DNA of 64,000 nt. Source: a virus. The DNA lies in IMG/VR virus record IMGVR_UViG_3300028394_000040, one strand, 5' to 3'. Shown piece by piece: positions 41,239 to 62,107 of the stretch. Below the pieces are notes generated by a model, which did not search any database, was not told the origin of the DNA, and saw nothing but the letters and a program-made list of their open reading frames with translations. Position numbers and translations under genes: made by a program. Position 1 is the first letter of the stretch. Each line of letters starts with the position of its first letter.

Positions 41239-43554
41239 CTAGTGCCCATCTCTAAAATTTTTCGCAATTGCAGGAGGTGCTTTTAATGTTACCCCTTCTA
41301 GCTTAGTAGTGTTTTCCATTAAGTCTTGAACGAATTCGGCTACTTCATGTGCGTACTCTTCAGGTACGTTTACTACTAACTGGTCATGCACTTGAGCCTG
41401 TACACGTCCATCTATACCTCTCTTTATTAACTCTCTATTAATAGCTACAGCAGCTCGGTTAACTACGGCGGCAGCTAAACTCTGTAATTGGTAATTTAAA
41501 CAGTTGTTTAATCCGTTACGATAATCTCTGTAAACATTAGTTACTTGCTCTCTTCCATATTGGTCTTCTAAATCTTTTCTAGCTCTCCAATCTAAAATAG
41601 CATCACCCATTAAGTCGTGAATTTTTTTAACAGAAGGTAAATGACGAATACGTCCTACCTTATTACTAATATAACCATGCTCTTTAACAAACTTTCTAGA
41701 CTCTTCTCTCCAACGTTTTAAGTCTGGGAATCCATCTAAATAACCTTGTACAAGTACGTCTGCTTCTTTTTGACTGATCTCTAACGTCTTACTCAGAGCA
41801 AACGATTCCATACCGTATGCAATACCTAATGAGTAAGCTTTAGCTTTATTACGTTTAACCGGGTCTACTTTCTTTAAAAAGTTATCTGCTTTCTTATCAG
41901 CACTAACTCCTTCTAGTTTTTCAGTACGAATAGCTACAGTAGAATAAAAATCATGGTTCTTATTAAAGATCTCTCTTAAATTTTCATCACCAGTTACCGA
42001 AGCAAAGCAGTGAGGTTCTAAAGATTCGTAGTCACAATCGATAAGTATTCGACCTTCTTCTGCTATTAAGAATGCCCTTACTACATTATTATAATGAACT
42101 ATTATAGGTGCAGCTTCTCCATCCTCTTTAGGTTTAGGTAACTGTTGCATATCAGAACCATACCTTCCTGATACAGTTCCGTTTTGCTTAAAGTAAAAGT
42201 AGTACCTACCATCTTCGTGTCTGTCGAAAAACCTATCTACGTAAGTTGACTTTACTTTAAGAAGCTTATTATATATACGTAAATTCTCAGCCCAAGGATG
42301 GTCTTTAGATATCGATTCAATCATATCATCATCGAATTGAGCTTTTCCTTTTGTTGTTGTTGATAATGGTGTTACCCCAAGAACATCAAAAGCTATTTTG
42401 CCTAATTGGTCTTTAGATTGAATATTAAAAAACTTACCTTCATTCTCCTCTTTCCATAACTCTAAGCTAACTTTTAATCTAGTGTTTTGAGGTAAGAATT
42501 TCTCATCACCAGATATTAAAAAATCCTTTATAGCAGATTCTGGTAAAGTTAGTAATGAAGCTTTATTTAAAACATACTTATTAGATTTATCTGATTTAGG
42601 TAGGTCAATGCCTTCTAAGTCACATAGTTTTTGAGCGTAAGTACCTTTGTTATTGCAAGGATAACTCGCAACAGCGGTCTGGATAACCCAAGCTCTTACA
42701 TCGTCAATTTTTAATAATTCTTCTGCAACTAACTTACTATGCTTTAATAAATCTGCCTCTATATCTATTTTAGTTTTCTGCAATAAATCTAGGTCTACCT
42801 TTACTCCAAACTCCTCCATTGGTATAGTTACTTCTTTGTAGATAGGCATTACCTCATCTACGTAAAAGAAATCTACTAAATTCTCTTCTATTAATACTTT
42901 AGAGAAGTGATTAAATATTCTTAAAGTTAAGTCTGTATCAGCTGCAGCATATTCTGATAATATATGTAAGTCTGCTTTATAGATTTCGTAATTAGTCTTA
43001 GTAATAGACCCACCGTTACGTTTAATATTCTCTTTTAGTATTAACTGCTCTTCGTTAGCTTTAGTCTCAATATCTAAACCTATCTCTCTCTGTACCATAA
43101 TAGCAATTTCCTTGAGACCAAAAGGTTTACCACCAAAACCAAAAGCTCCTTCTTCCTTTACCGTATGAACTAATAAAGCCGTATCTGCATGTAAGGAAGG
43201 AATTAAATCTTCACCGTAGAAGTTTTTAGTAAAACGACCGTCAAAAGAAGCATTATGCATAATTAACTTCTTACCGTGAAGTAAACTTAAGGTTTTCTTA
43301 GCTAATGCATGACAGCCGTGACCATCTATTTCACACTCAACTAACTCTTCCTTGTTTCTATCCCATACCATAGTAGGCATATAGAAACCTATACCTTCAT
43401 CACCAGACACAGAGAAACCAATAATCTTTCCTTTACGGACATTAAGACTATTGGTCTCGGTATCGTATGCGATATACTCACTCTCTTTTATATGCTGAAC
43501 TAAAAGTTCAAGAGTAGCTCTATCAGTAACGGTATAATACTTCTTCTCTATCAT
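41239..43554 (-). CDS. polA: family A DNA polymerase with 3'-5' exonuclease
   Basis: Exo motifs YDTET, HNASFD, YAAAD; polymerase motifs A DYESLE, B RNKAKAYSLGIAYG, C QVHDQ. Confidence 0.95.
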   Translation of the reverse strand: MIEKKYYTVTDRATLELLVQHIKESEYIAYDTETNSLNVRKGKIIGFSVSGDEGIGFYMPTMVWDRNKEELVECEIDGHGCHALAKKTLSLLHGKKLIMHNASFDGRFTKNFYGEDLIPSLHADTALLVHTVKEEGAFGFGGKPFGLKEIAIMVQREIGLDIETKANEEQLILKENIKRNGGSITKTNYEIYKADLHILSEYAAADTDLTLRIFNHFSKVLIEENLVDFFYVDEVMPIYKEVTIPMEEFGVKVDLDLLQKTKIDIEADLLKHSKLVAEELLKIDDVRAWVIQTAVASYPCNNKGTYAQKLCDLEGIDLPKSDKSNKYVLNKASLLTLPESAIKDFLISGDEKFLPQNTRLKVSLELWKEENEGKFFNIQSKDQLGKIAFDVLGVTPLSTTTKGKAQFDDDMIESISKDHPWAENLRIYNKLLKVKSTYVDRFFDRHEDGRYYFYFKQNGTVSGRYGSDMQQLPKPKEDGEAAPIIVHYNNVVRAFLIAEEGRILIDCDYESLEPHCFASVTGDENLREIFNKNHDFYSTVAIRTEKLEGVSADKKADNFLKKVDPVKRNKAKAYSLGIAYGMESFALSKTLEISQKEADVLVQGYLDGFPDLKRWREESRKFVKEHGYISNKVGRIRHLPSVKKIHDLMGDAILDWRARKDLEDQYGREQVTNVYRDYRNGLNNCLNYQLQSLAAAVVNRAAVAINRELIKRGIDGRVQAQVHDQLVVNVPEEYAHEVAEFVQDLMENTTKLEGVTLKAPPAIAKNFRDGH

Positions 43555-43914: not shown

Positions 43915-44490
43915 TTATCTCTGTCTATCGTATTGAAATTGTCCGTTGTAAAGATTCTCTACAGCTACTTCATCGCAATGGTGAAAGTAAATTTGAGCAA
44001 CTCTAGCATCACACTCTATAAATAGCGTACAGTTAACTGTGAGAATACATCCCATGTTCGATGTTTCGAAACCAGGGTCAAAAACAGAACTATGCATTAC
44101 AGCTCCATTCCTTAATAAAGAAGATCTTTGACGAATAAAACCTGCTAGATTAGAAGGTATTTTGCACCCTTCCCAAAACGTAATATCATACACTCCTTCG
44201 TAAAGTAAATAACCTTCTTTACCTTCTATCTTCTTGGTCTCAACAGGTCTGTATACATTCAACTCAGTCTTATCTTTAAAAATAAAACCTATCTGCGGTT
44301 GATTAGAAATGTAATGTCTCGGGTCAGAAATATTCCAATTGACATTACCTATAGCATTAATCGACTTAACTGATAAGTCGTAACCTACTTGTGCTGGTTT
44401 ACCTTTGCTATCCTCTAACTTAAGTATACCTTTTTCTATTATTTGTTCGGCGTTTAACATTTGCTTAATTTTTAGTTTTATAAAGCGCAA
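43915..44490 (-). CDS. dut: trimeric dUTPase/dCTP deaminase family protein (likely start 44460)
   Basis: GYDL, RSSLLRNG, FDPGF, ARVAQ. Confidence 0.8.
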   Translation of the reverse strand: MRFIKLKIKQMLNAEQIIEKGILKLEDSKGKPAQVGYDLSVKSINAIGNVNWNISDPRHYISNQPQIGFIFKDKTELNVYRPVETKKIEGKEGYLLYEGVYDITFWEGCKIPSNLAGFIRQRSSLLRNGAVMHSSVFDPGFETSNMGCILTVNCTLFIECDARVAQIYFHHCDEVAVENLYNGQFQYDRQR

Positions 44491-45109
44491 CAGATGAACA
44501 CATTTCTAAGAAATACTCTTCAGTCCAATTAGACTTTAATTTATTAATATCCTTATGAACCCATTGTACGTTACCAGTAATGTAACCTTTAGTACTGTCT
44601 ATCCTATCTAAAGACGCCGTATTTTTTTGATATCCGTTTTTATTTAAACTACCTAAAGATACGTCCAAAACTATATCGAAACCTGACAATGCACATATTC
44701 CTCTTTGTTTTTCAAATAATTCCCAGATCTCTTCTATTTTAACTGAAAATTCTAAATTCCTACTTTTAGCTCCGTTTTGAATAACTCGCCACATATCACC
44801 TGATATGTCTTTATAACCTTTCCAAATTTTCGATCTCCTTAGTACTCTCTGTTCTACATTTTCGAACTGTTTATACGCGGTAAGTTTTCTAGTTTCAATT
44901 AACTTTATTGCTTTCTCTTCTCCATACCTTTCGATATAGGATTTACCTTTGCTAAATTTTGAAATTGCTTCTACTGTTTCTCTAGAAGTCATTTTTGCGT
45001 TTGGAAACAGCCTTAAATATTCAGCCAACTCTAACCCGTGTTTATCCCTTAAATGAGTATTAGTAACTTTCTTAAATTTAACTTTACATATATTGCATGT
45101 TACCATCAC
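44465..45109 (-). CDS. HNH-type homing endonuclease with N-terminal Zn finger
   Basis: CNIC..H...H; CALSG, ASLDRIDSTKGYITGNVQWVHKDIN. Confidence 0.8.
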   Translation of the reverse strand: MMVTCNICKVKFKKVTNTHLRDKHGLELAEYLRLFPNAKMTSRETVEAISKFSKGKSYIERYGEEKAIKLIETRKLTAYKQFENVEQRVLRRSKIWKGYKDISGDMWRVIQNGAKSRNLEFSVKIEEIWELFEKQRGICALSGFDIVLDVSLGSLNKNGYQKNTASLDRIDSTKGYITGNVQWVHKDINKLKSNWTEEYFLEMCSSVALYKTKN

Positions 45110-45153: not shown

Positions 45154-45864
45154 CTACTCAGAAATTTTATAACTTCTCGTAAACTCATAGAATTCTGCTC
45201 TTGCTGAATCTTCATCTAAGAAGCATCCTGATAGTTTTGCTGTTTTCATGGATGCTCCGTGATGTTTGACACCCCTGCAGGAAACACATGCATGAGTCGC
45301 TTCGATCAAAACGGCTACACCTTGATTCCCTTCGCAGATTTTATTTACTGCATTGTGAATAGCTACTGTTAACTGCTCTTGGATAGCGCCTCGTCTCCCA
45401 AAGTTCTCAACGATTCTATTAAGCTTTGATAAGCCTACTACCCTACCGTTTTCAGAAGCAATATATGCTATATGTACTTTACCTTTTATTAAGCCGTGAT
45501 GATGACTACACATAGAAACCAGTGGAATACCGCCCTCAAAAACGATTCATGTATATCCATCGCTAGGGAATGCAGTAACTTTATCTAAAGGTTCATAACG
45601 ACCAGCCCATAAATGATTAACGTAGGCTTTAGCTACTCGATGAGGAGTTTCGGATGAGTTTGGATCGTTTTCCCAATCACATCCTAAAGCAGATAAGAAC
45701 CAACCGAACGCTTCAGCAGCATCTTCGATAATTATTTGCTTATCTAAATCAGTTAAACGAGCTTCAGGGCCGTTAATTGCTTGTTTGGCTGCCAATTGCG
45801 TTGATATACCATTAGCGAATCCTGCTTGAACTAGTTCAGTTCCTTCAATAAATTTTTTTGACAT
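45154..45864 (-). CDS. folE: GTP cyclohydrolase I with one in-frame TGA at 45547-45549
   Basis: ETPHRVAKAY...DGYT*IVFEGGIPLVSMCSHH...GLSKLNR...IQEQLT...HACVSCRG, all in one frame. Confidence 0.88.
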
Positions 45865-45897
45865 TTGTGTTTGTTTTTAAGTGGTGCTACGACACTA
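45865..45897 (-). promoter_or_regulatory. candidate preQ1-I-like riboswitch aptamer
   Basis: AGTG-TCGTAGCAC-CACT-TAAAAACAAACAC immediately 5' of the folE ATG. Confidence 0.45.
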
Positions 45898-45917
45898 CAT
45901 AACCGAAAGTAAAGTTA

Positions 45918-46340
45918 TTACTTTTTTAAATAATCTTGTATAGTTTCTGAATCTTTATTTTCCCAAGGGAAAACTATCCATGCATTAGAATCAATTGACT
46001 CTGCATAATATTCTGGAATATATTTAGAATTAGTTCTCCAAAGTAGGCTTGCAGTAGTAAATCCACAGTAATGAAAATCTACAAAAGTTTGACCAGAATC
46101 GCATATGTCATCAATAAGCAATGTCTTAGCCCTAATGTCTTCCTTTAACATTATAGCATCTTCTACAGATAAAAATTCTATACCAAGCTTATGTGATAGG
46201 AGTACTGCCGGTATTAATCCACCTCTAGCAGGACCTGTAACATACTTCAAATTTTTATTTAACAATACCCATTTTTCGATAGCATATATGTACTCCTCTA
46301 CTCCCGACCATGACAGGTGAATTTTATCTGGTGTTTCCAT
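45918..46340 (-). CDS. type I purine phosphoribosyltransferase (Gpt-like)
   Basis: RGGLIPA; PRPP motif LLIDDICDSGQT; WIVFPWE. Confidence 0.88.
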   Translation of the reverse strand: METPDKIHLSWSGVEEYIYAIEKWVLLNKNLKYVTGPARGGLIPAVLLSHKLGIEFLSVEDAIMLKEDIRAKTLLIDDICDSGQTFVDFHYCGFTTASLLWRTNSKYIPEYYAESIDSNAWIVFPWENKDSETIQDYLKK

Positions 46341-47194
46341 TATACATTAAGTATGCGATCCCAAGCTGAAATGTGCAAACGAGTCAAGCCTGTAAATTTA
46401 TATTTCTTAGCCATTTCCAATACAAATTGAGTACGCTCATGAAAATCATCCTGACTGTCTAGACCTGGCATACAAACTACATTCTTTAAAGGAATGTTAA
46501 ATGGCTCAACGAAATCGCGGAATACTTCTTTAACATCTTCTTCATTAGAGATAACAAACTTAAATTGATAGTTTTGATGCTTCATTATCTGCTCTATAAC
46601 TTCTGGCTTAATACGCTGCTTTACAGTCATACCTGAGTTCTCTAATTTAGGAGAGCAATTAATTTGAGTTAGCCGTACGAACATATCCGGTGAAAATTCT
46701 ACAGTACCGTTAGTTTCAATTTCATTATAAACAAGAAAATCTACTTTTAATAAACCATTACTATAGGATTCGTACTTTGCCCAGTAGTCAATAAAGTTTA
46801 TAATAGCTTCTTGATGTTTTTTCATTGCGGGTTCTCCACCTGTCCAAATTAAATGGATAGTTCCATTTAAAATATCATCGTAGATACCTTGCTCTTTCCA
46901 AGTATCTATTAAGTATTGGAAGTCTTTATTTTCCCCTCTCCATGCCCATTGTGAAGTACTATCACAAGTCCATGTTGCTTTACCTTCTAATTCTAAATCT
47001 CCTTTAAAGATTTCACCATCGGCAAGTTCTTTGCCGTTAATTAAGTTCTTTAAAAATCTAGTAGACATACCACAAGTCAAGTTACACAAACCTAAACGGA
47101 TAAAGTAAGAAGGTACTCCTGTAGATTTTCCTTCGCCCTGTACTGAGTAGAAGTCAGAACTTATTAATAATTTGTTAGGATCTATAGTAGACAT
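46340..47194 (-). CDS. queE: 7-carboxy-7-deazaguanine synthase (radical SAM)
   Basis: SVQGEG, FIRLGLCNLTC...CDS, TGGEP, ETNGT, SPKL, RLH. Confidence 0.93.
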   Translation of the reverse strand: MSTIDPNKLLISSDFYSVQGEGKSTGVPSYFIRLGLCNLTCGMSTRFLKNLINGKELADGEIFKGDLELEGKATWTCDSTSQWAWRGENKDFQYLIDTWKEQGIYDDILNGTIHLIWTGGEPAMKKHQEAIINFIDYWAKYESYSNGLLKVDFLVYNEIETNGTVEFSPDMFVRLTQINCSPKLENSGMTVKQRIKPEVIEQIMKHQNYQFKFVISNEEDVKEVFRDFVEPFNIPLKNVVCMPGLDSQDDFHERTQFVLEMAKKYKFTGLTRLHISAWDRILNV

Positions 47195-47195
47195 A

Positions 47196-47426
47196 TTATT
47201 CGTTGTTAATTTTTTTGTAGACTGAGTTGGTAATGGCTAAAGCCCAAATAGCTAAAAGAACTCTCCACCAAATAGACCAATTAGCTATATTTAAATCCCA
47301 ATTTATAAAGGAAATAATAACATAAGGAATAAATGTTGAGGCAAGAATTAAAATAACATAAGCTAGGAAAGGTAATTTTTTCATCGAATTAAGGAATGTA
47401 TATTGCTGAATTTCTATCGTTTTCAA
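47196..47426 (-). CDS. small two-TM membrane protein (likely start 47384)
   Basis: SFINWDLNIANWSIWWR. Confidence 0.55.
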   Translation of the reverse strand: MKTIEIQQYTFLNSMKKLPFLAYVILILASTFIPYVIISFINWDLNIANWSIWWRVLLAIWALAITNSVYKKINNE

Positions 47427-47853
47427 AGAATTCTACTTTTGTAACTTGGACTCTTCCTGAGGTCTCTTCTATAACAAAAGGATTAACCTTGCTATAAATA
47501 AACTCAGCGAATTTCTCTGCACCTACATCCGGGAGTAGTCTTAACTGTATTACTCCTAGACCGTCCATAGTTTTGTACCCATTTATACCTGGATCGTCTT
47601 CTGCTACTAAACAAGTATGGTCAAACATATAGTCCATCCACTCTTTAGGATTCTTACCATCTATAGTACCTTTAGCTCTTTTCATGCCGCCAAAATCCCA
47701 TACCCAATTTCGCTCATCTAAATCTCCTTCAAACCATAAACGAAAAGATATACCATATCCATGTATAAATTTACAATGAGTGCCTTCGGCTCTCCACTGA
47801 CGGAAAATAGTACTGTATCCGTCAAACAGCTTTGTTGAAATAAACTTTGCCAT
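47389..47853 (-). CDS. queD: 6-carboxytetrahydropterin synthase
   Basis: HCKFIHGY, WDFG, FDHT, GAEKFA, ENDRNSA. Confidence 0.92.
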   Translation of the reverse strand: MAKFISTKLFDGYSTIFRQWRAEGTHCKFIHGYGISFRLWFEGDLDERNWVWDFGGMKRAKGTIDGKNPKEWMDYMFDHTCLVAEDDPGINGYKTMDGLGVIQLRLLPDVGAEKFAEFIYSKVNPFVIEETSGRVQVTKVEFFENDRNSAIYIP

Positions 47854-47862
47854 AATTTTAAA

Positions 47863-48372
47863 TTAAAGGTATTTACTTATTATATCTAATCTCTCCTCAA
47901 CTGACCCTGTTACTTTAATAATTTTTTCAGTCGGTATATGTTTTTCCATAAAGCTTACTATAACAGCGTCTACTTTATTTTGTAACTCCTCGTTAAGTCT
48001 ATCCGGGTCGTAAACAAATCCGAATTCAATAGGAATATAAAAAAAATGTTCTACCTGTTCCTGTGTTTGGTCAAACAACTTAACCATCTCCGATGTATCC
48101 ATCGTAGGATTAATAATTTGGGTATACAAAATACAGTCTACAATACTTCTAGTCGAGATCACGTACTTATGGGAAAGGTAATTTTGATAAGCCCAAGTCG
48201 ATAACTCATTGATTACTAATTGCTTTTCGTAATCAGAGAAGTCTAACTGCTTAGCTATCTTAAATACAGGTCTAGAAAACCCGTCTGTTACATAATAGTT
48301 AGCAAATTTTTCACTAACAGCTTTTAACAACGTACTCTTACCTACACCATGACTTCCTAATAAGATTTTCAT
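47863..48372 (-). CDS. P-loop (d)NMP kinase-like protein (AAA_28-type)
   Basis: GSHGVGKST, TRSIVD, YIPIEF, GSVEER. Confidence 0.75.
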   Translation of the reverse strand: MKILLGSHGVGKSTLLKAVSEKFANYYVTDGFSRPVFKIAKQLDFSDYEKQLVINELSTWAYQNYLSHKYVISTRSIVDCILYTQIINPTMDTSEMVKLFDQTQEQVEHFFYIPIEFGFVYDPDRLNEELQNKVDAVIVSFMEKHIPTEKIIKVTGSVEERLDIISKYL

Positions 48373-49001
48373 ACTTCGAATTCTAAATTTTCTACGGTCT
48401 CTTTTCCTAAAGGTAGTAATTTTGATTTAAGTAAAAAAGTAATCCAACAAGTAAATGATGTACTTTTTAGAATATCATACATACTATCTAAGGATCTAGC
48501 TATATTACTAGTACTGCATTGCATTACTATATCCCCCTCATCTACTCCTTCTGTTACTTTATGAACTACCGAACCGACCTCTCTATACTTACCTTCCCAT
48601 GCCTTAATTTGTGGGTCTTTACCTTTTAATTCCGGATATGAACTAATTAAACCAGGATGGCCGTTGTAGATACTTCCTTTAAAGTTCTTGATAAAAGATG
48701 CAGGTAAAATTCTGAGATATCCGTGTAACGTTATTAAATTACAATTATTTAAAATTTCACTATGATAACTCTCTTCTGTAGGCCTAAAAGGCAGTTTAAC
48801 TATTTCTACATTATTTTTCTTGAAAAATTTTAAGGAATTAGCAGATAATTTATTAAAGTTATTAGTTAACAAATATCCAGGAGTTATATTTAATGCATTG
48901 CATACTTCTACTACTTCCGAACCTGTTTGTGATACAAATACTGCCCATTTAGAAACTTTCATTCTATTGTCCTTGTGCTTTTTTAGTATAAAATCCAACA
49001 T
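48369..49001 (-). CDS. dpdN: PurN-like formyltransferase (candidate DpdN, preQ1 formyltransferase; likely start 48962)
   Basis: SQTGSE, HGYLRIL, NGHPG, VHKVTEGVDEG; directly downstream of queF. Confidence 0.75.
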   Translation of the reverse strand: MLDFILKKHKDNRMKVSKWAVFVSQTGSEVVEVCNALNITPGYLLTNNFNKLSANSLKFFKKNNVEIVKLPFRPTEESYHSEILNNCNLITLHGYLRILPASFIKNFKGSIYNGHPGLISSYPELKGKDPQIKAWEGKYREVGSVVHKVTEGVDEGDIVMQCSTSNIARSLDSMYDILKSTSFTCWITFLLKSKLLPLGKETVENLEFEV

Positions 49002-49884
49002 TTTTTAATGCAGAAGAGATTAACATAGTAGATGATGCCCTGACTGGATTAATATCTAATGAACCACGTCTAGCGTATAATAACATAACTGAACATTCAT
49101 GGACTAAAGGGTTTTTCATTATTTCCAAGTATAACTTTTCACAGCAGAATTCATGGAATTCATTTACTTCTCTTAAAGATATAACTAATTTTAATAATTC
49201 CTTACCGTATACCGAACCTCTTTTAGTTATAATTTTAAAATAAGCAGCACCTGTATCTTTTTGCTTTGTATGTCTACATCTAGAACGAAGAACATTAGTA
49301 AAAGATTTGTTAACCTCTCCTAGCGGATCATCGTCAATAATAATATTATACGATTCTTGAGAGTTATAATCTGTTATTACTAAATTCTGTAATTCAGCTA
49401 GACTAACCGACTTATATAAATCTCGATATCCTTCACCTGGGTCTCTTTCATATATTTTATCTTCTCCAGAACTAAAAAACTTCACCTCGACGTCTGCACC
49501 AATACATTTGCTTATATCTAGTATGACTTGATTCTCATAATTCTCTATAGCTTCTTCAAAAGTAGAGCCCATCTTACACATATCAAAAGAATTTAAATAT
49601 AATTTAAAGCTTTTTGATTCAACCATAAATTCTGAATTAGCCGGACAAATAATTTTTAACGTTCCTGCTACTGGTAAGCCATTATTTAACAAAAACGTAG
49701 CTTCATGACAATGCCAAACATCATAACCTACAAACTCATTTCCGGTAATACCCCAATCACCTCTGGCTGCTGCCCTTGGCATTGGATTTAATAATGATGC
49801 ATCGAATTTATCAGTATAAATTGCATAGGAGTTCTCTGAACCTAGAGACTTACTAGCAAATTCATTCATATTACCACTTGACAT
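48964..49884 (-). CDS. queF: NADPH-dependent 7-cyano-7-deazaguanine reductase (bimodular)
   Basis: VESKSFKLYL, LRSRCRHTKQKDTG, EFHE, YARRGSLDINP. Confidence 0.93.
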   Translation of the reverse strand: MSSGNMNEFASKSLGSENSYAIYTDKFDASLLNPMPRAAARGDWGITGNEFVGYDVWHCHEATFLLNNGLPVAGTLKIICPANSEFMVESKSFKLYLNSFDMCKMGSTFEEAIENYENQVILDISKCIGADVEVKFFSSGEDKIYERDPGEGYRDLYKSVSLAELQNLVITDYNSQESYNIIIDDDPLGEVNKSFTNVLRSRCRHTKQKDTGAAYFKIITKRGSVYGKELLKLVISLREVNEFHEFCCEKLYLEIMKNPLVHECSVMLLYARRGSLDINPVRASSTMLISSALKNVGFYTKKAQGQ

Positions 49885-50671
49885 AGTTCTTAAAAGTTTT
49901 TACGTTTTTATAAATTAATTCTATTTGTTCTTTTTCTAATTTAGTATCTAAATTATCTGCAAGTTTTAAACTAGGTTTTGGTGCTAGTAAGCCATGTTCT
50001 GTAAACTCATTACCTACCCATCCGTTAATAATAGGAGAACTAGTATCTATAGAGTAGATGTAATCAGCTACGGACTGCCCTTTAAATAATTCAAATTCAA
50101 CTGGGTTTAGAGTACCTAGTAAATGAATTTTTAATGCTATAGCCTCATGCAGTTTAAATTTATGCTTATACCACCATTGTAAAAATCTGAATCTTACGGT
50201 AACATAATCAGACTTTTCTATTAAGTCAAAAGGTAAAGCTATAATGTCTATATCTTCACTTAGAAAATAGGACATACAGCTATAAATTTCGTCAAAAGTA
50301 TCTCCTTGGCATACTCCCATATACTTTTGGTCTTTAACTTTATACTTAGCTAAATACTCCTTTGCATTATCTAATGTAACTCTATAGTCATTAACCTTAT
50401 CAGGTAAAACCAAATGTGTTGGTTTATACTCATTACATAATTCAGCTAATTCTTCTAATGGTATAGACTCACCTAATTCAAAAGCAGAATTATCTAAAAT
50501 AGAATAAGAAGATGATGCTAGTTTATTTTTATAAAAGTCTGCATACTCCTTATCCTTATTAAGTAAATGACCTAATACATAAGGGTAATCACTAATTTTA
50601 TCATGCTCACTGAATAACTGCTTAGGAATTTCGTGAGATACTAAAGGTCTTCTCATATACTTACTTCGCAT
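49871..50671 (-). CDS. dpdA: TGT-like TIM-barrel deazaguanine transglycosylase (DpdA, probably DpdA3-like)
   Basis: LDNSAFE, LPD, VCQG, IHLLG, SIDTSS; lies between queC and queF. Confidence 0.72.
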   Translation of the reverse strand: MRSKYMRRPLVSHEIPKQLFSEHDKISDYPYVLGHLLNKDKEYADFYKNKLASSSYSILDNSAFELGESIPLEELAELCNEYKPTHLVLPDKVNDYRVTLDNAKEYLAKYKVKDQKYMGVCQGDTFDEIYSCMSYFLSEDIDIIALPFDLIEKSDYVTVRFRFLQWWYKHKFKLHEAIALKIHLLGTLNPVEFELFKGQSVADYIYSIDTSSPIINGWVGNEFTEHGLLAPKPSLKLADNLDTKLEKEQIELIYKNVKTFKNYVKW

Positions 50672-51554
50672 ATTCGGCTAGTACTTTCTCTACTGATGCT
50701 CTAGCTACATCCCAGCTAACAGGTCCTGTTTCATCTGCATATGCCACCGGATCTGGACGTCCTAAACGAATAAATGCTTCTATACGTTCTACTGATGCTG
50801 CTGATTTATAATCAGAATACCAGTTACCTATCTTCCATCCTTCACTTGTAGGTTGATCTTGTATAAAAATTGGCTTATAAGATGTATTAGTACGTTTATA
50901 TACCTCATTAAAATTTAAACCTAATTTCTCACAAGCTACTAACCCATCTTCTAAAATTTCAAATTTGCTTACTTCTAGATACGGAGTATAGTGGTATACT
51001 AATTCAGAATCCCAATTACCTACTTTAAATGCCTCAAAATCAGCATCACGAAACTCTTGACGACAGTCAGGGTAAATAGCATGATCTCCAGCGTGAATAC
51101 CCATTGCGATAGCTACTTCTTGCTTATCGCCTTTAGTTGCTACAGATAATGCAGCGGCTTGAATTAAAGAAGCGAAAATCTTATTACGATTAGGTACGAC
51201 AGTTTCTTTCATGTTGTCTTGCTCATAATGTCCTTCTGGAACTTCATCACCTCCTGTAACTAAAGCAGAATGTAGTAAGTTTTGTAATCCATCTAATTTA
51301 ATGATTTGATGTTTTACTATAGGATATGCTTCTTCAAATCCACCGAATACATGGTCAGTATGAGTAATTCTCATAGGATTTGTATTAATGTATTCTACTA
51401 AAGATTTAGCCCGGTCTAATTCAACACGGTGTTTTTGACCGTAATCAAACCCTAATGCGGTAACTTCATAGCCGTTAGCTAATAAATGAAGTAATAAAGT
51501 AGAGGAATCCATCCCTCCGCTGAGTGATAAAACTGCTTTTTTTGTACTAAACAT
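50661..51554 (-). CDS. queC: 7-cyano-7-deazaguanine synthase
   Basis: SGGMDS, FDYGQKH, VPNRN, HAGDHAIYPDCR. Confidence 0.95.
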   Translation of the reverse strand: MFSTKKAVLSLSGGMDSSTLLLHLLANGYEVTALGFDYGQKHRVELDRAKSLVEYINTNPMRITHTDHVFGGFEEAYPIVKHQIIKLDGLQNLLHSALVTGGDEVPEGHYEQDNMKETVVPNRNKIFASLIQAAALSVATKGDKQEVAIAMGIHAGDHAIYPDCRQEFRDADFEAFKVGNWDSELVYHYTPYLEVSKFEILEDGLVACEKLGLNFNEVYKRTNTSYKPIFIQDQPTSEGWKIGNWYSDYKSAASVERIEAFIRLGRPDPVAYADETGPVSWDVARASVEKVLAEYAK

Positions 51555-51574
51555 ATAACTTTATTTATAAAATT

Positions 51575-51616
51575 AAGACGTATTATTTTATTGATCGATT
51601 AGTCCCGGTAACCGAT
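51575..51616 (-). promoter_or_regulatory. candidate H-type pseudoknot in the queC leader
   Basis: ATCGGTTA-CCGGGAC-TAATCGAT, A-rich linker, then GTCTT complementary to loop GGGAC. Confidence 0.35.
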
Positions 51617-52062
51617 TAGAATAACTCTCTAATTACTGAACTTTTTACTGGCAGACAGTATAAATCCTTATTTCTACCTACTCTTTTAAGCTCTCTTCCT
51701 TGAACGTAATTTCTCATTTCTTTAAGAGAGTATTCGTAGCATTTATTATTTTCAATATCATAAGTTAAAATTTTATCAGCCTGGGAGGTATAAAACCATC
51801 CTGGCATTCCTGAAGGAGATTTTTCTACTTCTAAAAAAGTAAAACCATTTCTCACATTAGTTTTTATATCGGCCCTATCCCATTCCTTGGTAACTGCATT
51901 ATAATATTCAATATCATATCCTTTCAACTGCTTATGCTTGAAAGTATCAAAATCGTTCGTATAGTCTTTAATCTCATAGCCTCTTGTTGTCATTTCTGCT
52001 ATAACATTAATTTCTCCTGATCTACCTTTTTGGTAGTTTACCGATAACTCAAATTTGCTCAT
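51616..52062 (-). CDS. PD-(D/E)XK restriction-like nuclease
   Basis: G..GE, GYD, ADIKT, FLE, GWFYTSQAD. Confidence 0.6.
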   Translation of the reverse strand: MSKFELSVNYQKGRSGEINVIAEMTTRGYEIKDYTNDFDTFKHKQLKGYDIEYYNAVTKEWDRADIKTNVRNGFTFLEVEKSPSGMPGWFYTSQADKILTYDIENNKCYEYSLKEMRNYVQGRELKRVGRNKDLYCLPVKSSVIRELF

Positions 52063-52079: not shown

Positions 52080-53795
52080 TTAACCACCACAGCTTAAACA
52101 GTCTTCAGAAGTTCTACTTCCAATATCACCGTTAATAACCGAATCGGTCCTTATATAATATAACGTTTTAACTCCTAATTTCCAAGCTGTTTGATGTACT
52201 AAATTAATAAATCTAGGATTATCTGTTGGATCAAAGAACAAATTTAGTGATTGAGCTTGGTCTATATACCTCTGCCTTACAGCTGCCTGCTCAACAAGGC
52301 CTAGCTGGTTTATTTCTACTGCGGTTAAAAAAACTTCTTTATCATCTGCAGGCATAACCTCTTCAGGTAGATTAGCTATAGATCCTCTATCTTTCATAAT
52401 CTGATCCCATACCTCTTCAGTATTATGCCCTCTGTTCTCTAAGTACTTAGATAATTCATCATTACGTCTGATAAAAGTACCTTTAGGTCCATTAAAAGTG
52501 TAAATATTAGCTATTACAGGTTCAATACCTGCAGATACTCCTCCTGAGATTGTAGCATTAGATAATGTAGGTGCGATAGCTATTAGATGCGAGTTTCTCA
52601 TACCTGTACCTTTACACCAAACAGGCTCTCCGTATTCGTTAGCTAACTTTCTTGAAGCTGCTTCTGCTTGAGATTTTATCTGAGAGAAAATAGTATTTGT
52701 ATAAGAGGTAGAAGCTATCGATAAGAAAGGAATTTCTTTAGATTGTAAGAATGTATGCCATCCTAAGACTCCTAATCCTAATGCTCGTCCTTTCTTAGCT
52801 GATCTATGAGTTCTAATCATTGATTCTTTACCGTTAGTTTTAGCTAGGAATTCTTCTAATACTCCATCAAGGAAGTAAATAGAAGTTTCAATTAAATCAG
52901 AATCTTTCCATTCGTCATACTTTGCTAAGTTAACAGATGATAAGCAGCAAATAAAGCTATGTTCTTCGTCGGTATGTAAAGCAATTTCAGTACAGATGTT
53001 AGTCATAGTAACATCTAGGTTATTCTTTACATAAGCAGGAGGATTTACTTTATTAACGTTATCCTTATACATTACGAAAGGCTCACCTGTCTCTATTCTA
53101 GTTTTTAAAATTTCTATCCACAACTCCATAGCTTCTGGATCTCTATGCTCTAACTTAAGCATAAATTTATCATCTACTACAACGCATTGGTGTAAATTTA
53201 AACATTGACGATTGGGGTCTCCTTTAGGTCGCCTAATCTGCAAAAACTCCTTTATATCTGGGTGATTAATATCTAGATTAACCGATGATGCACCTCTACG
53301 TACAGTTCCTTGATTAGTAGCTATAATAGTAGAATCATAAATCTTAGCCCAAGGTACAACACCTTCTGACTGACCTAATCCTTCTTTACCTATTTTAATT
53401 CCTCTTCCTCTAATTCTAGATAAACTAATACCTACCCCACCACCAACTGAGGTTAGTTTCATTAACTCAGCGTTAGTTAAACCTATACCTCTTATAGAAT
53501 CTGGTGTATCTATACCAAAACATGAAATAGGTAAGCCTCTATCCGTACCTGTATTAGCTAGTACTGGAGAGGCTAGACATAACCATCCTTTCCACATATA
53601 CTTATAAAACTTAGCAGCCAGGTCCGGACGATCTAATCTCATAGCTACTGCATCAGATACTCTCTTATAAGCCTTCTTTGGAGTCTCAAGTGGAAGTAGA
53701 TAGTCTTTTGATATAGTGGCTAAAGATATTTCATTCATCCATTCAGGATAATCTTTTCCAGCTTCCCATCCGTATATGTCTAGTATAGTATTCAT
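52080..53795 (-). CDS. nrdA: class I ribonucleotide reductase large subunit (no ATP cone)
   Basis: SPVLAN, PISCF, GGGVG, TNICTEI, APT, DQAQS, KTLYY, C-terminal CLSC. Confidence 0.96.
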   Translation of the reverse strand: MNTILDIYGWEAGKDYPEWMNEISLATISKDYLLPLETPKKAYKRVSDAVAMRLDRPDLAAKFYKYMWKGWLCLASPVLANTGTDRGLPISCFGIDTPDSIRGIGLTNAELMKLTSVGGGVGISLSRIRGRGIKIGKEGLGQSEGVVPWAKIYDSTIIATNQGTVRRGASSVNLDINHPDIKEFLQIRRPKGDPNRQCLNLHQCVVVDDKFMLKLEHRDPEAMELWIEILKTRIETGEPFVMYKDNVNKVNPPAYVKNNLDVTMTNICTEIALHTDEEHSFICCLSSVNLAKYDEWKDSDLIETSIYFLDGVLEEFLAKTNGKESMIRTHRSAKKGRALGLGVLGWHTFLQSKEIPFLSIASTSYTNTIFSQIKSQAEAASRKLANEYGEPVWCKGTGMRNSHLIAIAPTLSNATISGGVSAGIEPVIANIYTFNGPKGTFIRRNDELSKYLENRGHNTEEVWDQIMKDRGSIANLPEEVMPADDKEVFLTAVEINQLGLVEQAAVRQRYIDQAQSLNLFFDPTDNPRFINLVHQTAWKLGVKTLYYIRTDSVINGDIGSRTSEDCLSCGG

Positions 53796-54421
53796 TAAAT
53801 TTTATTTTTGTACTGTTCTACTTTTTTTGTAAATATCTTATTCTGTTCAGTTTCCGAAAAATTTTTACAGTATTTAGTAATAAATTGCCTTGCTAATTGT
53901 TCTGGAGGTTTTGGCTTTCCGGTCCAAGATGGCTTTCTTCCTTTTAGTGTCGCTGAAATTGCTGCTCTTACCTCTAATCTTTTTGCAGGATTATTAATTC
54001 CTGTTTTCGTTCCCTTTAGCGAATCACTCTGCTTCTCTCTCCTTTCTACTGCCCCCTTTACTCCTAATAGTTCCTCCCAAGTCTTACCTTTCAGTGCTTT
54101 TGATATCTTAGCTCGTACTTCTACTCTTTTTGTAGGATTTTCTTCACCTATTGCAAATCCTGTTGCTAAGTTTTTCTTATTATAGCTATCTGGATTCTGC
54201 ATTGCTTTCACTTCAGTTAATATTTCTGATTCCTTTTCCCTAAAATAGATTCCCTCATATAGAATTTCTCTAGCAAAATTAACGAGTCCATGCTCCCTAA
54301 ATGCTTTCTTAATATCTGTACCGCTAGCGGTATACTTGTCTCCAGCTGTTCCTTTATGTGATCCAATATACCACTTTCCATTGAGGTTATTGGTCCATTT
54401 GTAAACTATTCCTGTTTTCAT
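53795..54421 (-). CDS. GIY-YIG homing endonuclease with NUMOD3-like repeats
   Basis: GIVY...WYIG; RAKISKALKGK-type repeats; inserted between nrdB and nrdA. Confidence 0.88.
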   Translation of the reverse strand: MKTGIVYKWTNNLNGKWYIGSHKGTAGDKYTASGTDIKKAFREHGLVNFAREILYEGIYFREKESEILTEVKAMQNPDSYNKKNLATGFAIGEENPTKRVEVRAKISKALKGKTWEELLGVKGAVERREKQSDSLKGTKTGINNPAKRLEVRAAISATLKGRKPSWTGKPKPPEQLARQFITKYCKNFSETEQNKIFTKKVEQYKNKI

Positions 54422-54554: not shown

Positions 54555-55538
54555 TTAGAAAACAGCAGAAGAGTCCCACGACATATGACCTTTTGAATAA
54601 TTTGTTACTCTATTCGCAAAAAAGTCTGTTTGCTGTTTACCAGCTATAACAGCATCAAACCATTTCATAGTCTTTAATGCTCCTTTATCTATTTCGCTAG
54701 AAGGTATTAAAGGTTTTAAACCTAAATCTCCCATCTTAGTATTTACTCTATGTTTAATAAAGTTTTTTAAGTCTTCCTTAGATAAATTCTCTAAATCGCC
54801 CATTTCAAAAACTTTATCGATAAAATCGAATTCCAATTTAATAGCTAGTCTAGCAGCAGTCTCTATTTCGTCTATTAATATAGGTGAAAGTAGTTTAGGA
54901 TTTTCACCAACAAGCTCTCTAAATAACCAACAACCAGCTTCTGAATGTAATGATTCGTCTCTTACTGACCATTCTACTATTTGGCCTACTCCTTTAAGTT
55001 TATTTCTCATCTTAAAAGAGAGTAAAACAGCGAAAGAAGAAAATAAGTTTACTCCTTCTGTAAATGCTGAAAAGATAGCTAGAGATTTAGCAATTTCATG
55101 CCAGTCTTTTTTACCATCATGACTACTTGCAACATTCATTAAAGACTGTATTTTAGCTTTTGTTGCTTCATCTTCCATAAACTCAGCAAAGTTATCTAAG
55201 CCTAATTGTTCGTTTAAAAGAGAATATGCTTCAGCATGAATAGTTTCAAAGGAACCAAAGGTAGTAGCCATCATAATGACTTCCGGCTTTCTAAACCATT
55301 TTGTTACTAACCCAGTCCAATAATCATTAACTACAGTTTCCGTCTGGGCAAAGCCTTTTAAAATTCCTCCTATAACGTTCTTTTCGTTATCTTTTAAATT
55401 TGAATTCCAATCTGTTATATCTTGGGACATCGGCACTTCAGTATGAAGCCAATGTGCTTGCTGCTGTTTTAACCAGTAATCATATGCCTTAGGATACTCA
55501 AAAGGCTTATAGACAACTCGTTCTTCGATTAAACTCAT
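54555..55538 (-). CDS. nrdB: class I ribonucleotide reductase small subunit
   Basis: KPFEY, ETIHAEAY, EGVNLFSSF, RDESLH, DFF. Confidence 0.96.
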   Translation of the reverse strand: MSLIEERVVYKPFEYPKAYDYWLKQQQAHWLHTEVPMSQDITDWNSNLKDNEKNVIGGILKGFAQTETVVNDYWTGLVTKWFRKPEVIMMATTFGSFETIHAEAYSLLNEQLGLDNFAEFMEDEATKAKIQSLMNVASSHDGKKDWHEIAKSLAIFSAFTEGVNLFSSFAVLLSFKMRNKLKGVGQIVEWSVRDESLHSEAGCWLFRELVGENPKLLSPILIDEIETAARLAIKLEFDFIDKVFEMGDLENLSKEDLKNFIKHRVNTKMGDLGLKPLIPSSEIDKGALKTMKWFDAVIAGKQQTDFFANRVTNYSKGHMSWDSSAVF

Positions 55539-60305: not shown

Positions 60306-60740
60306 CTAAGCTTTTACAGTAGCTTCTACTATACTGTGCACTTTAGTATGGATTTTTCTTAAATCCGGACCTTGTGTTAGTAGAACTGTATTTTTGAAGT
60401 CTGGCCAAACTATACGATAATTTGGATCTAAAACACCACCGTTTAATTCTTTAATCAAAAGATTAAGTGCGTTAATGGTGTACAGAGTATTAGTTTCCTT
60501 TTTACGATGCAAAAGGATTGTATTAGGTAATATCTTGAAACTGGAATTATTTGGGTCAATATTATACGTACATAAAAACTCGTCTGAATCTGGTGACTCT
60601 AAAACGAATACTTTATCGTATAATATAGTGTAATGGCTCTTTATCCCTTCTAGTATTGAATCTAAATCTTCTTTTGGGGAGAAAGTACAGAACAGTTTGT
60701 TCATAATTTCCTGTAACGTGAATTCTTTTTCTACTATCAT
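60306..60740 (-). CDS. conserved hypothetical phage protein
   Basis: NKLFCTF...HRKKETNTLYTINALN. Confidence 0.65.
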   Translation of the reverse strand: MIVEKEFTLQEIMNKLFCTFSPKEDLDSILEGIKSHYTILYDKVFVLESPDSDEFLCTYNIDPNNSSFKILPNTILLHRKKETNTLYTINALNLLIKELNGGVLDPNYRIVWPDFKNTVLLTQGPDLRKIHTKVHSIVEATVKA

Positions 60741-62107
60741 AAATAGTTTGTTTTTCTAAGAGAGTTATAATTTGAGCCGTACTTAACTTTACTAGTTAAG
60801 CCTTTTTTGTATATGATATCTTTAATCGTCGTTAAAACTTCCTTTCCGTCTTCAAAATTAAAATCAATAAGAATAGAATCATACACCACTAAAGTTATAA
60901 AACTTTTCTTGTCTTTCAAATAATCTTGTATACTCTCTAGTAAAAACAGGTTACTAATTGTTTCACAATTTTGCAAATAATAATTAAAAAGCTTCTGTGG
61001 ATACATTCCCTCTATACTTCTCAATCTTCTACCGGTAGGTAAGTCAAGGTACCCATTTAAACTATACGTCTCCCATAATTGCTCAATGAATGCGCTTATC
61101 TTTTTGAAGAATGGTATATTCTTATAGTCATCGGAGATACCCCCGTAGATCTGTTTAAAACTAAGCTCTTTTGACTGCTTGTATTGATCTTCAGTTAATT
61201 CCTCTACGTTGAAATACATCCTACCTAAAACTGTATGTATAGATTCGGATGAGTTGAAATCAAACCGGATAAGTTTACTTATTAATTTAAGGTGGTATCC
61301 TTCAAAGTCGTACTCTACAAATGCATTATTAATAGGTAAGAATGCTTCTCTACAGCCATTATCTTTATTTAATGCTAAAAAATTTACTGTATTAAATGAG
61401 TTGGTAGGTCTACCGGTAATGTTATGTAGGTTGTAATAAGAATAAAGTAATCCATCGTGGATAGAGTAGGGCTTCCATTTAGTTTCAAAGTACTTATCTA
61501 ATATTTTTTCATCTACTCTAATTCCTCTACATTCAATACTTCTGTATACTTTCTCTATTCTCTTAACTACCGAACCTGTCCCTTCTTCCTTCATGTAGGG
61601 CTTTACTTTTTCATAAAGGCATTCTGATTTTTCATATAGTTTAGAAATAGGTATTACTCTATTTAAGTCCTTCTTGTGGTAAAGCCTAGTATAAAGATCT
61701 CTTTGTATTTTCGTATCGCAATATAAATCAGGTAACTTAGATATCTCATCTATCATTATCTGGGAAAGGTCTTGTAAGTTATCTGTAGTAATATAGTATC
61801 TGGTAAGTTTACTATCTAAACAGAATACTCTGTCGTGATTATCTAAAAAAGCTTGTATTTCAAGAATAGGTAAGCTTAATGCTTCGGAATGATTTACTGG
61901 GAGAATATAGCCTTTCTGTCTGTTATGGTAGTATAAAACAGATATAGAATTAATAGCAGGATGGAAATTGTCGTTTAATGTTATAATATCTATAAAACAG
62001 TCTTCACTTGGTTTTAACTTAGCTAACTGTTCTGATGTTTCAACGATATAATACATGAACCTTAATTTAGTAAGAATATAACCGATTAATTTAAAACCTT
62101 TGAACAT
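60737..62107 (-). CDS. second, compact and divergent family A DNA polymerase-like protein (likely start 62056)
   Basis: TGRPTN; motif A YDFEGYH; motif B SKELSFKQIYG; motif C VYDSIL. Confidence 0.8.
   Translation of the reverse strand: MFKGFKLIGYILTKLRFMYYIVETSEQLAKLKPSEDCFIDIITLNDNFHPAINSISVLYYHNRQKGYILPVNHSEALSLPILEIQAFLDNHDRVFCLDSKLTRYYITTDNLQDLSQIMIDEISKLPDLYCDTKIQRDLYTRLYHKKDLNRVIPISKLYEKSECLYEKVKPYMKEEGTGSVVKRIEKVYRSIECRGIRVDEKILDKYFETKWKPYSIHDGLLYSYYNLHNITGRPTNSFNTVNFLALNKDNGCREAFLPINNAFVEYDFEGYHLKLISKLIRFDFNSSESIHTVLGRMYFNVEELTEDQYKQSKELSFKQIYGGISDDYKNIPFFKKISAFIEQLWETYSLNGYLDLPTGRRLRSIEGMYPQKLFNYYLQNCETISNLFLLESIQDYLKDKKSFITLVVYDSILIDFNFEDGKEVLTTIKDIIYKKGLTSKVKYGSNYNSLRKTNYL

Follow-up and report, generated by a model that had tools for sequence, protein, structure and literature searches.

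Here, we report that a 64-kb stretch of viral DNA (IMG/VR record IMGVR_UViG_3300028394_000040; hereafter the window) encodes at 45154-52062, on its minus strand, a 7-deazaguanine DNA modification operon which by its gene content is a new and diverged member of the system known from Flavobacterium phage immuto, the window phage being an uncultured immuto relative. The operon joins a DpdA3-type transglycosylase to genes for a formylated 7-deazaguanine base, to an AAA_28 P-loop kinase and to a purine phosphoribosyltransferase (PRTase). Comparison of related loci points to a close functional link between DpdA3 and the kinase. We tentatively favour a reading in which DpdA3 is a (deoxy)nucleoside/nucleotide:7-deazaguanine transglycosylase that forms a pre-replicative pathway with this kinase, and in which the PRTase, similar to xanthine-guanine phosphoribosyltransferase (XGPRT), recycles guanine; we give this reading slightly less than an even chance.

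In phage immuto, 7-(formylamino)methyl-7-deazaguanine (fdPreQ1) takes the place of all deoxyguanosine (dG), and the formyltransferase DpdN was predicted from the joint presence of DpdA3, QueF and a PurN-like gene (PMC10516641). A preliminary description of the window had recognised the same combination as an fdPreQ1 signature, and the cluster does match: its DpdN is 43% identical to immuto DpdN (YP_010114479, 1e-41), retains the N-x-H and DEG catalytic motifs, contains a Formyl_trans_N domain and adjoins the complete FolE-to-QueF pathway. Thus fdPreQ1 is the predicted product in the window phage. The two phages agree in their enzymes, down to the PRTase (gp211 in immuto) and a kinase annotated there as 'thymidylate kinase' (gp203); both also have a small open reading frame (ORF) between queD and queE, and in both PolA and GroES/GroEL follow. 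Identity between the two is 78% for FolE, 69% for QueD, 36-37% for the PRTase, 33% for DpdA3 and 25% for the kinase; the gene order is rearranged, and divergence is strong in DpdA3 and in the kinase. The window folE contains a TGA codon where immuto has GGA. The window also has a DCD/dUTPase-like gene, whereas a MazG-like 'hydrolase' adjoins DpdA3 in immuto. Among 34 long DpdA3 loci the DCD/dUTPase-like gene was found in 15, a MazG-like gene in 12, both in none and neither in seven, a mutual exclusion that may reflect phylogeny only.

Among DpdA3 phages, complete replacement of G has been reported for immuto, phiST and CP220 only (PMC10516641). The latter two, with dADG in CP220 and dDG in phiST, similarly combine DpdA3 with an adjoining P-loop kinase, an HD or MazG phosphohydrolase and a PRTase of the same family. 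They differ from the window in that QueF and DpdN are missing, the bases stop at derivatives of 7-carboxy-7-deazaguanine (CDG), the genes are scattered over the genome and, in phiST, the kinase beside DpdA3 belongs to another P-loop family, AAA_18.

The window transglycosylase could be placed in the DpdA3 subfamily by its similarity to the immuto, CP220 and phiST members. The protein of 266 amino acids (aa) has no Pfam match, including none to the Pfam tRNA-guanine transglycosylase (TGT) family. By tblastn it matches the immuto 'DNA guanine transglycosylase' with 32.6% identity (2e-28) and proteins of CP220-type Campylobacter phages with about 32%; beyond these, the phage database contained as relatives only those of phiST-type Cellulophaga phages, besides some weaker matches. 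E values to the founding members were 1.6e-34 for immuto (YP_010114477), 7.4e-28 for CP220 and 8.1e-9 for phiST (CGPG_00065), and a family profile picks up all three founders at 6.1e-76 and 3.6e-23. An AlphaFold (AF2) model from 38 homologues, with a mean predicted local distance difference test (pLDDT) of 94.3, consists of the eight-stranded TGT barrel alone (Foldseek probability 1.0). Archaeal TGT (ArcTGT), bacterial TGT and bacterial DpdA 7ui4, a DNA preQ0 insertase, are tied as its structural neighbours (VIA Z 16.5-17.2, with 16.7 to DpdA 7ui4 and 17.1 to TGT; root-mean-square deviation 3.2-3.6 Å over about 235 residues). Residues D60, D91 and D209 are invariant in the 38 sequences and Q122 is nearly so; on alignment, S-x-D209-T-S falls opposite the SIDS segment of DpdA. 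The TIM barrel, the Asp-containing motifs and the S-x-D-T/S segment are held in common with TGT, ArcTGT and DpdA 7ui4, and DpdA3 would accordingly be expected from its sequence to act as a base exchanger, guanine out and deazaguanine in, by means of the catalytic Asp pair. In contrast to TGT and DpdA 7ui4, however, it is about 100-150 residues shorter, it is acidic (pI 4.6-6.4 in 38 of 38 aligned proteins) and no Cys/His zinc motif is conserved among the 38 aligned DpdA3 sequences. Overall acidity as an argument against DNA binding was kept as a weak pointer only.

The kinase is an almost constant neighbour of this enzyme. IMG/VR contains at least 518 DpdA3 loci, of which the best 80 were analysed; 54 of these were informative in having at least 3 kb of sequence downstream of DpdA3, and the kinase was found downstream in 53 of the 54. 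The gap between the two genes was below 50 nt in 10 loci, several of them with overlapping frames. The AAA_28 kinase thus appears from comparative genomics to be an obligate partner of DpdA3. The association extends to cultured phages with other gene arrangements. CP220 has a small islet among its tail genes that consists of gp055 (HD domain and P-loop kinase), gp056 (DpdA3) and gp057 (AAA_28 kinase), phiST has the row MazG, small ORF, AAA_18 kinase and DpdA3, and Bacillus phage BSTP12 the row P-loop kinase, DpdA3-like gene and PolA. Gene fusions were also found, joining DpdA3 to a formyltransferase (P0055, P0069), the formyltransferase to the kinase (P0156) and the kinase to FolE2 (P0157). 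No fusion of DpdA3 to the kinase was present among the 150 best DpdA3 representatives; the extra part of the long forms among them was a formyltransferase, a homing endonuclease, DUF3310 or a tail of unknown kind. Two proteins (P0153, P0155) that join the kinase to a domain of about 280 aa with HxH and GHxG motifs were considered as such fusions and rejected, their C-terminal domain being an unrelated one (hhalign probability below 1%). In a further fusion (P0154) the kinase is joined to a GNAT acetyltransferase, which possibly points to an acetylated derivative of preQ1 (7-aminomethyl-7-deazaguanine).

The window kinase is 25% identical to immuto gp203 (6e-10) and is homologous also to CP220 gp057. 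Its model (pLDDT 89.8) is closest in fold to the ribosylnicotinamide kinase (RNK) domain of NadR, to thymidylate kinase (TMPK) and to deoxynucleoside kinase (dNK), and with the family profile NadR-RNK likewise ranks first (2.4e-7), ahead of TMPK and dNK. The modelled fold suggests a small-molecule nucleos(t)ide kinase and not a guanylate kinase. The label of thymidylate kinase given to homologues is not supported: the window protein matches AAA_28 and AAA_18 only, and the immuto homologue scores 0.004 and 17 bits against Thymidylate_kin, for which the cut-off is 27 bits.

The PRTase is different in its distribution. Its best matches in the Protein Data Bank were 1vdm from P. horikoshii, Sulfolobus GpT and E. 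coli XGPRT. With E. coli XGPRT (Gpt), 1vdm and Sulfolobus GpT-1 and GpT-2 it shares a length of about 140-150 aa, the RGG loop, the DDxxD(S/T)G motif for phosphoribosyl pyrophosphate (PRPP) and a C-terminal WI(V)xPW segment. It differs from them in an identity of only about 25-30% and in belonging to a phage-specific family located near deazaguanine genes in the records inspected; against the NCBIfam equivalog it reached 38.5 bits (cut-off 138 bits), as a divergent member. The family shows no variation at RGG, DDICDSG, W121 or W126, and the hallmarks of 6-oxopurine PRTases (DDxxD(S/T)G, the RGG pyrophosphate loop and a base-stacking aromatic residue) were found in 13 of 13 aligned phage homologues. 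The Asp within DDxxD(S/T)G of XGPRT and of hypoxanthine-guanine phosphoribosyltransferase presumably contacts N7 of the purine, an atom which 7-deazaguanines lack.

A tblastn search detected the PRTase family in 27 of 50,697 phage records, namely 14 Campylobacter CP220-type, five Cellulophaga phiST-type, four immuto, two Brevundimonas and one Synechococcus record and one faecal contig. Of these, 26 were assigned to phage groups that encode DpdA3, 23 of them from the tblastn results, although of the two Brevundimonas phages MaInes alone was checked directly. In MaInes the PRTase lies beside folE, a deoxynucleoside monophosphate (dNMP) kinase, NrdAB and PolA; the phage was regarded as a possible DpdA-less carrier of the PRTase until the family profile found a DpdA3-like gene beside its polymerase. 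Synechococcus phage BUCT-ZZ01, with the PRTase among queE, queD and folE, is the sole PRTase phage in which neither DpdA3 nor TGT was detected. Within the 80 DpdA3 loci the PRTase was detected in 11. The PRTase profile, which recovered the nearest relative of the window (G001) at 2.4e-51 as positive control, had no match in three partial relatives or in a CheckV-100%-complete 181-kb relative that has DpdA3, DpdN, the kinase and the que genes in full. The PRTase is hence specific to these systems, yet it is dispensable, because a complete relative with the whole DpdA3 set has none. Since the N7-contacting Asp is kept and the complete relative lacks the gene, the PRTase is, as judged from sequence, more likely an accessory enzyme of guanine salvage than a 7-deazapurine PRTase. 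Taken together, these distributions bear out the suspicion that PRTase and kinase are no accidental neighbours in the window, the former by the rarity of its family and the latter by its linkage to DpdA3.

In the scheme that we favour, FolE, QueD, QueE and QueC would make preQ0 (7-cyano-7-deazaguanine) from GTP and QueF would reduce it to preQ1. DpdA3 would then exchange guanine for the deazaguanine on a free deoxynucleoside or deoxynucleotide, and DpdN would formylate a small-molecule deazaguanine nucleoside or nucleotide, as PurN does its ribonucleotide substrate. The AAA_28 kinase would rephosphorylate the product, PolA would incorporate the modified dGTP analogue, and the PRTase would return the released guanine to GMP and onward to GTP for FolE; a nucleotide hydrolase of the MazG or HD type may take part in certain lineages. 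Exchange at the nucleotide level is favoured because the pairing of DpdA3 and kinase is near-obligate and is accompanied by DpdN-kinase and DpdA3-DpdN fusions, because DpdN descends from a ribonucleotide-formylating enzyme, because DpdA3 repeatedly has a nucleotide hydrolase next to it (MazG in immuto and phiST, HD in CP220) and because DpdA3 is a bare, acidic barrel. It is favoured also because DpdA3 failed in the DNA-level assay, that is, in the E. coli model of the authors who described it, and because the nucleoside of 7-amido-7-deazaguanine (ADG) was seen in CP220-infected cells (PMC10516641). In phage 9g, a DpdA1 phage with partial replacement of G, neither a kinase nor a PRTase nor a ribonucleotide reductase (RNR) is annotated, which may serve as an indirect pointer in the same direction.

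A pre-replicative scheme would account for complete replacement of G. Phage T4 makes its hydroxymethyl-dC by a pathway of dCTPase, dCMP hydroxymethylase and the dNMP kinase gp1. The logic would be alike, in that a canonical dNTP is cleared, the monophosphate is modified, and a dedicated kinase and the phage polymerase lead to 100% replacement; the enzyme families are different, and the window scheme is a hypothetical one. The broader idea of a nucleotide-level route in the preliminary description survives through the coupling of DpdA3 to the kinase and not through the PRTase.

Several observations weigh against this scheme. The action of DpdA3 on nucleotides is something we infer, and its fold is equally near to tRNA-acting and DNA-acting relatives. 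Its acidity and small size are weak arguments, and a bare barrel can bind DNA, as endonuclease IV does. The kinase-FolE2 fusion suits a supply of GTP at least equally well. The kinase family occurs also in 89 Streptomyces phage records, and Jay2Jay, the one Streptomyces phage inspected, has no deazaguanine genes near the kinase; because the gene sits apart from such genes there, the AAA_28 kinase can be a general nucleotide kinase. Distant DpdA3-like genes stand alone, without kinase or que neighbours, in two contigs from gut metagenome-assembled genomes (MAGs; L099, L100), which refutes the kinase rule as a universal one. Furthermore, no enzyme to clear dGTP was identified in the window, where the local pyrophosphatase has the pyrimidine-specific dUTPase/DCD fold; a role of this gene as dGTP clearer is not supportable for a pyrimidine-specific family.

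The principal alternative, which in our view is only somewhat less probable, is that DpdA3 exchanges preQ1 or its formylated form into DNA after replication, with DpdN acting before or after insertion, and that PRTase and kinase form a loop from guanine to GMP and GDP and back to GTP for FolE. The TGT/DpdA fold and the catalytic Asp pair are as expected for such an enzyme, and post-replicative insertion has been proposed for all DpdA subfamilies (PMC10516641). The PRTase retains all XGPRT hallmarks and is confined to groups of phages in which replacement of G is reported to be complete and guanine release would peak, and the kinase-FolE2 fusion ties the kinase to the consumption of GTP. Indeed, recycling of guanine to GTP, given in the preliminary description as an alternative, fits the PRTase better than a 7-deazapurine route does. 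Salvage, however, does not account for the fact that it is the kinase, in 53/54 loci and often in overlapping frames, and not the PRTase, in 11/80, that accompanies DpdA3, nor for the existence of DpdN-kinase fusions. The kinase is of the AAA_28 type (NadR-RNK/TMPK/dNK-like) and not of the guanylate kinase family, and hosts already have Gmk. The failure to show DpdA3 activity in the E. coli DNA assay also speaks against exchange in DNA.

We consider it unlikely that the PRTase itself joins a 7-deazaguanine base to PRPP, with the kinase leading to the diphosphate, NrdAB reducing it, PolA incorporating the product and DpdA3 mopping up residual G. ToyH and TubE are 7-deazapurine PRTases of toyocamycin and tubercidin biosynthesis, and would set a precedent in that they use preQ0 or CDG as PRTase substrates in the company of FolE, QueD and QueE homologues; ToyH resembles adenine phosphoribosyltransferase, however, and the phage enzyme looks XGPRT-like. 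The company of the PRTase is suggestive, as it accompanies genes for 7-deazaguanine synthesis in all phage records inspected, adjoins a dNMP-kinase-like gene and RNR in phiST and MaInes, and occurs in BUCT-ZZ01 with no DpdA3 or TGT detected. Yet the invariant N7-contacting Asp in 13/13 phage PRTases and the detection of the gene in only 11/80 DpdA3 loci, with none in the complete relative and the three partial ones, argue against such a role, and it would render the universally conserved DpdA3 redundant. The route from base and PRPP through the monophosphate, kinase and RNR to PolA, as put forward in the preliminary description, is accordingly not favoured. Finally, kinase, PRTase and dUTPase-like gene could be ordinary genes of nucleotide metabolism that merely share a replication module with the que genes. 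The entire 39-64 kb stretch is such a module and the inspected Streptomyces phage kinase lies away from que genes, but mere coincidence is very improbable in view of the 53/54 linkage, the overlapping frames, the CP220 islet among tail genes, the gene fusions and a PRTase family limited to 27 phage records with deazaguanine genes near every one inspected.

The fdPreQ1 system itself is known; new with respect to the literature searched are the proposed roles of the kinase and the PRTase and the challenge to the view that all insertion is post-replicative. A pre-replicative route was reportedly proposed for Campylobacter phages in 2019 and is said to have been set aside in 2023, once DpdA3 was found and was assumed to act on DNA, even though no activity of it could be shown. 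In full-text literature searches no paper connected DpdA to a phosphoribosyltransferase, and the few that contained both 'deazaguanine' and 'kinase' dealt with other systems; the words 'phosphoribosyl' and 'kinase' are absent from the immuto paper (PMC10516641). The DpdA3-kinase pair, the fusions and the accessory guanine PRTase provide a concrete hypothesis on complete G replacement that is testable in vitro. The answer bears on the enzymatic synthesis of fully 7-deazaguanine-substituted DNA, on the escape of phages from restriction and CRISPR systems and on the annotation of thousands of metagenomic homologues, which formed 5,068 representative clusters at E <= 0.001.

The window has about 33% G+C and is nearly all coding on the minus strand. 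Family searches located all nine genes of the contiguous que/dpdA/PurN-like/kinase/PRTase/folE block where the preliminary description had placed them, as well as the flanking NrdAB upstream and the dUTPase-like gene and PolA downstream (Table 1). That gene list needed amendment in so far as folE is split, two small ORFs (76 aa and 148 aa) lie inside the range and an HNH gene follows folE. Reading frames overlap by 11 nt between QueC and DpdA3, by 14 nt between DpdA3 and QueF, by an ATGA between DpdN and the kinase and by 1 nt between QueE and the PRTase, so the block from QueC to FolE is regarded as a single operon. Downstream of folE follow the HNH gene, the DCD/dUTPase-family gene, a 107-aa ORF, PolA and GroES/GroEL. 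The replication and nucleotide module at 39-64 kb comprises, besides NrdAB and PolA, a DnaB-like helicase, a gp32-like single-stranded DNA-binding protein, a RecA-like protein and a 5'-3' exonuclease. For the 148-aa ORF the protein atlas returned viral hypothetical clusters only, and homologues were present in a few other DpdA3 loci (62% identity in L050, 41% in L058 and 41% in L088).

Table 1. Genes of the 7-deazaguanine operon and its surroundings in the window, with the matches on which each assignment rests
Feature	Position	Strand	Evidence
NrdB (class I ribonucleotide reductase)	54555-55538	-	Ribonuc_red_sm 4.6e-65
GIY-YIG/NUMOD3 homing-endonuclease-like gene separating nrdA and nrdB	53795-54421	-	NUMOD3 2.7e-7
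NrdA (class I ribonucleotide reductase)	52080-53795	-	Ribonuc_red_lgC 1.7e-100
ORF of 148 aa, first gene of block	51616-52062	-	no Pfam/PHROG/NCBIfam match
QueC-like 7-cyano-7-deazaguanine synthase, divergent	50661-51554	-	Pfam QueC 4.7e-37; SGGMDS P-loop
DpdA3-type 7-deazaguanine transglycosylase, 266 aa	49871-50671	-	tblastn to immuto/CP220/phiST DpdA3
QueF, bimodular NADPH-dependent preQ0 reductase	48964-49884	-	QueF_N 3.9e-26
DpdN, PurN-like preQ1 formyltransferase (predicted)	48369-49001	-	Formyl_trans_N 2.1e-15
AAA_28 P-loop nucleoside/nucleotide kinase	47863-48372	-	AAA_28 3.6e-6; phrog_2107
QueD (6-carboxytetrahydropterin synthase)	47389-47853	-	Pfam PTPS 9.9e-13; phrog_2389 7.5e-36
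ORF of 76 aa between queD and queE	47196-47426	-	no family match; 98.7% conserved in G001
QueE, radical-SAM 7-carboxy-7-deazaguanine synthase	46340-47194	-	phrog_2076 2.4e-39; weak NCBIfam QueE matches
XGPRT-like 6-oxopurine PRTase (probable guanine salvage)	45918-46340	-	phrog_8995 1.8e-18; NF006613 xanthine PRTase 8.1e-10, below curated cut-off
folE (GTP cyclohydrolase I), broken by one TGA	45154-45864	-	GTP_cyclohydroI + phrog_2197
HNH endonuclease gene, outside pathway	44465-45109	-	phrog_3322, phrog_3118 endonuclease
DCD/dUTPase-family nucleotide pyrophosphatase or deaminase	43915-44490	-	Pfam DCD 5.6e-11; NF002598 dUTPase 6.3e-24, below curated cut-off
PolA, family A DNA polymerase with 3'-5' exonuclease	41239-43554	-	DNA_pol_A 7.2e-62; DNA_pol_A_exo1 5.6e-11

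Among the enzymes of the preQ1 pathway, QueD, QueE, QueC and QueF are intact by motif and folE carries the TGA. QueF keeps the ESKSFKLY motif, Cys203 and Asp210 and matches TIGR03138 at 7.2e-51 with 173 bits (curated cut-off 293 bits). The QueC-like protein has no four-Cys zinc site of the canonical kind: only two Cys (C164 and C208) are conserved in the 44 homologues encoded in DpdA3 loci, a feature suggestive of a separate QueC subfamily. In QueE the radical-SAM Cys motif is split into C37-x3-C41 and C77. Because all three Cys are invariant in 43 phage homologues, the split is apparently an unusual cluster-binding arrangement and not damage. The peculiarities of both proteins are traits of whole families.

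The folE gene is interrupted by an in-frame TGA at 45547-45549, which splits it into ORFs 45547-45864 and 45154-45513 of the same frame; the C-terminal part matches GTP_cyclohydroI (7.1e-33) and the N-terminal part phrog_2197. The codon at this site is GGA (Gly) in the relative G001 as it is in immuto. Recoding of the TGA is ruled out, since 13 window ORFs end normally in TGA and tRNA-Met is the sole tRNA of the window, and the change is a G-to-T nonsense mutation or a sequencing error. A host GTP cyclohydrolase may stand in for the nonsense-bearing gene. Just downstream of the TGA, relatives have HHHQT and AYIP where the window folE has HHHGL and AYIA, and the gene may be decaying or imported.

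In a search for a close cultured relative, megablast of the block against the 50,697 phage records gave no match. The nearest sequence is the IMG/VR fragment G001, which is collinear and 94% identical over the block. The HNH gene is missing from the otherwise collinear G001, and folE is 82-86% identical to its G001 counterpart at the nucleotide level, compared to 95-99% for most neighbouring genes. This pattern resembles the insertion of a homing endonuclease together with a co-conversion tract. The same operon was found in a 6.8-kb contig binned with a Sediminibacterium sp. MAG (L098, JBBAJX010000050.1), with a DpdA3 65% identical to that of the window. This contig is a hint, and no proof, that the lineage infects freshwater Bacteroidota.

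Some further DpdA3 variants were encountered. Two homologues contain a LAGLIDADG intein (P0001, P0002) and one is joined to a DUF3310 protein (P0145). In cultured Bacillus subtilis siphophages of the BSTP and BSP7 group a DpdA3-like gene is mislabelled 'NadR' or 'polynucleotide kinase', and in BSTP12 it lies near Gat-QueC, QueD and FolE (locus L095, MW354678.1 15841-26365); the phages of this group are candidates for heavy 7-deazaguanine substitution. Elsewhere in the window, a 456-aa ORF at 60737-62107 has a weak partial match to DNA_pol_A (3e-6, below cut-off) and is possibly another gene of the family A polymerase type, diverged or truncated, located upstream of the gp32-like and RecA-like genes.

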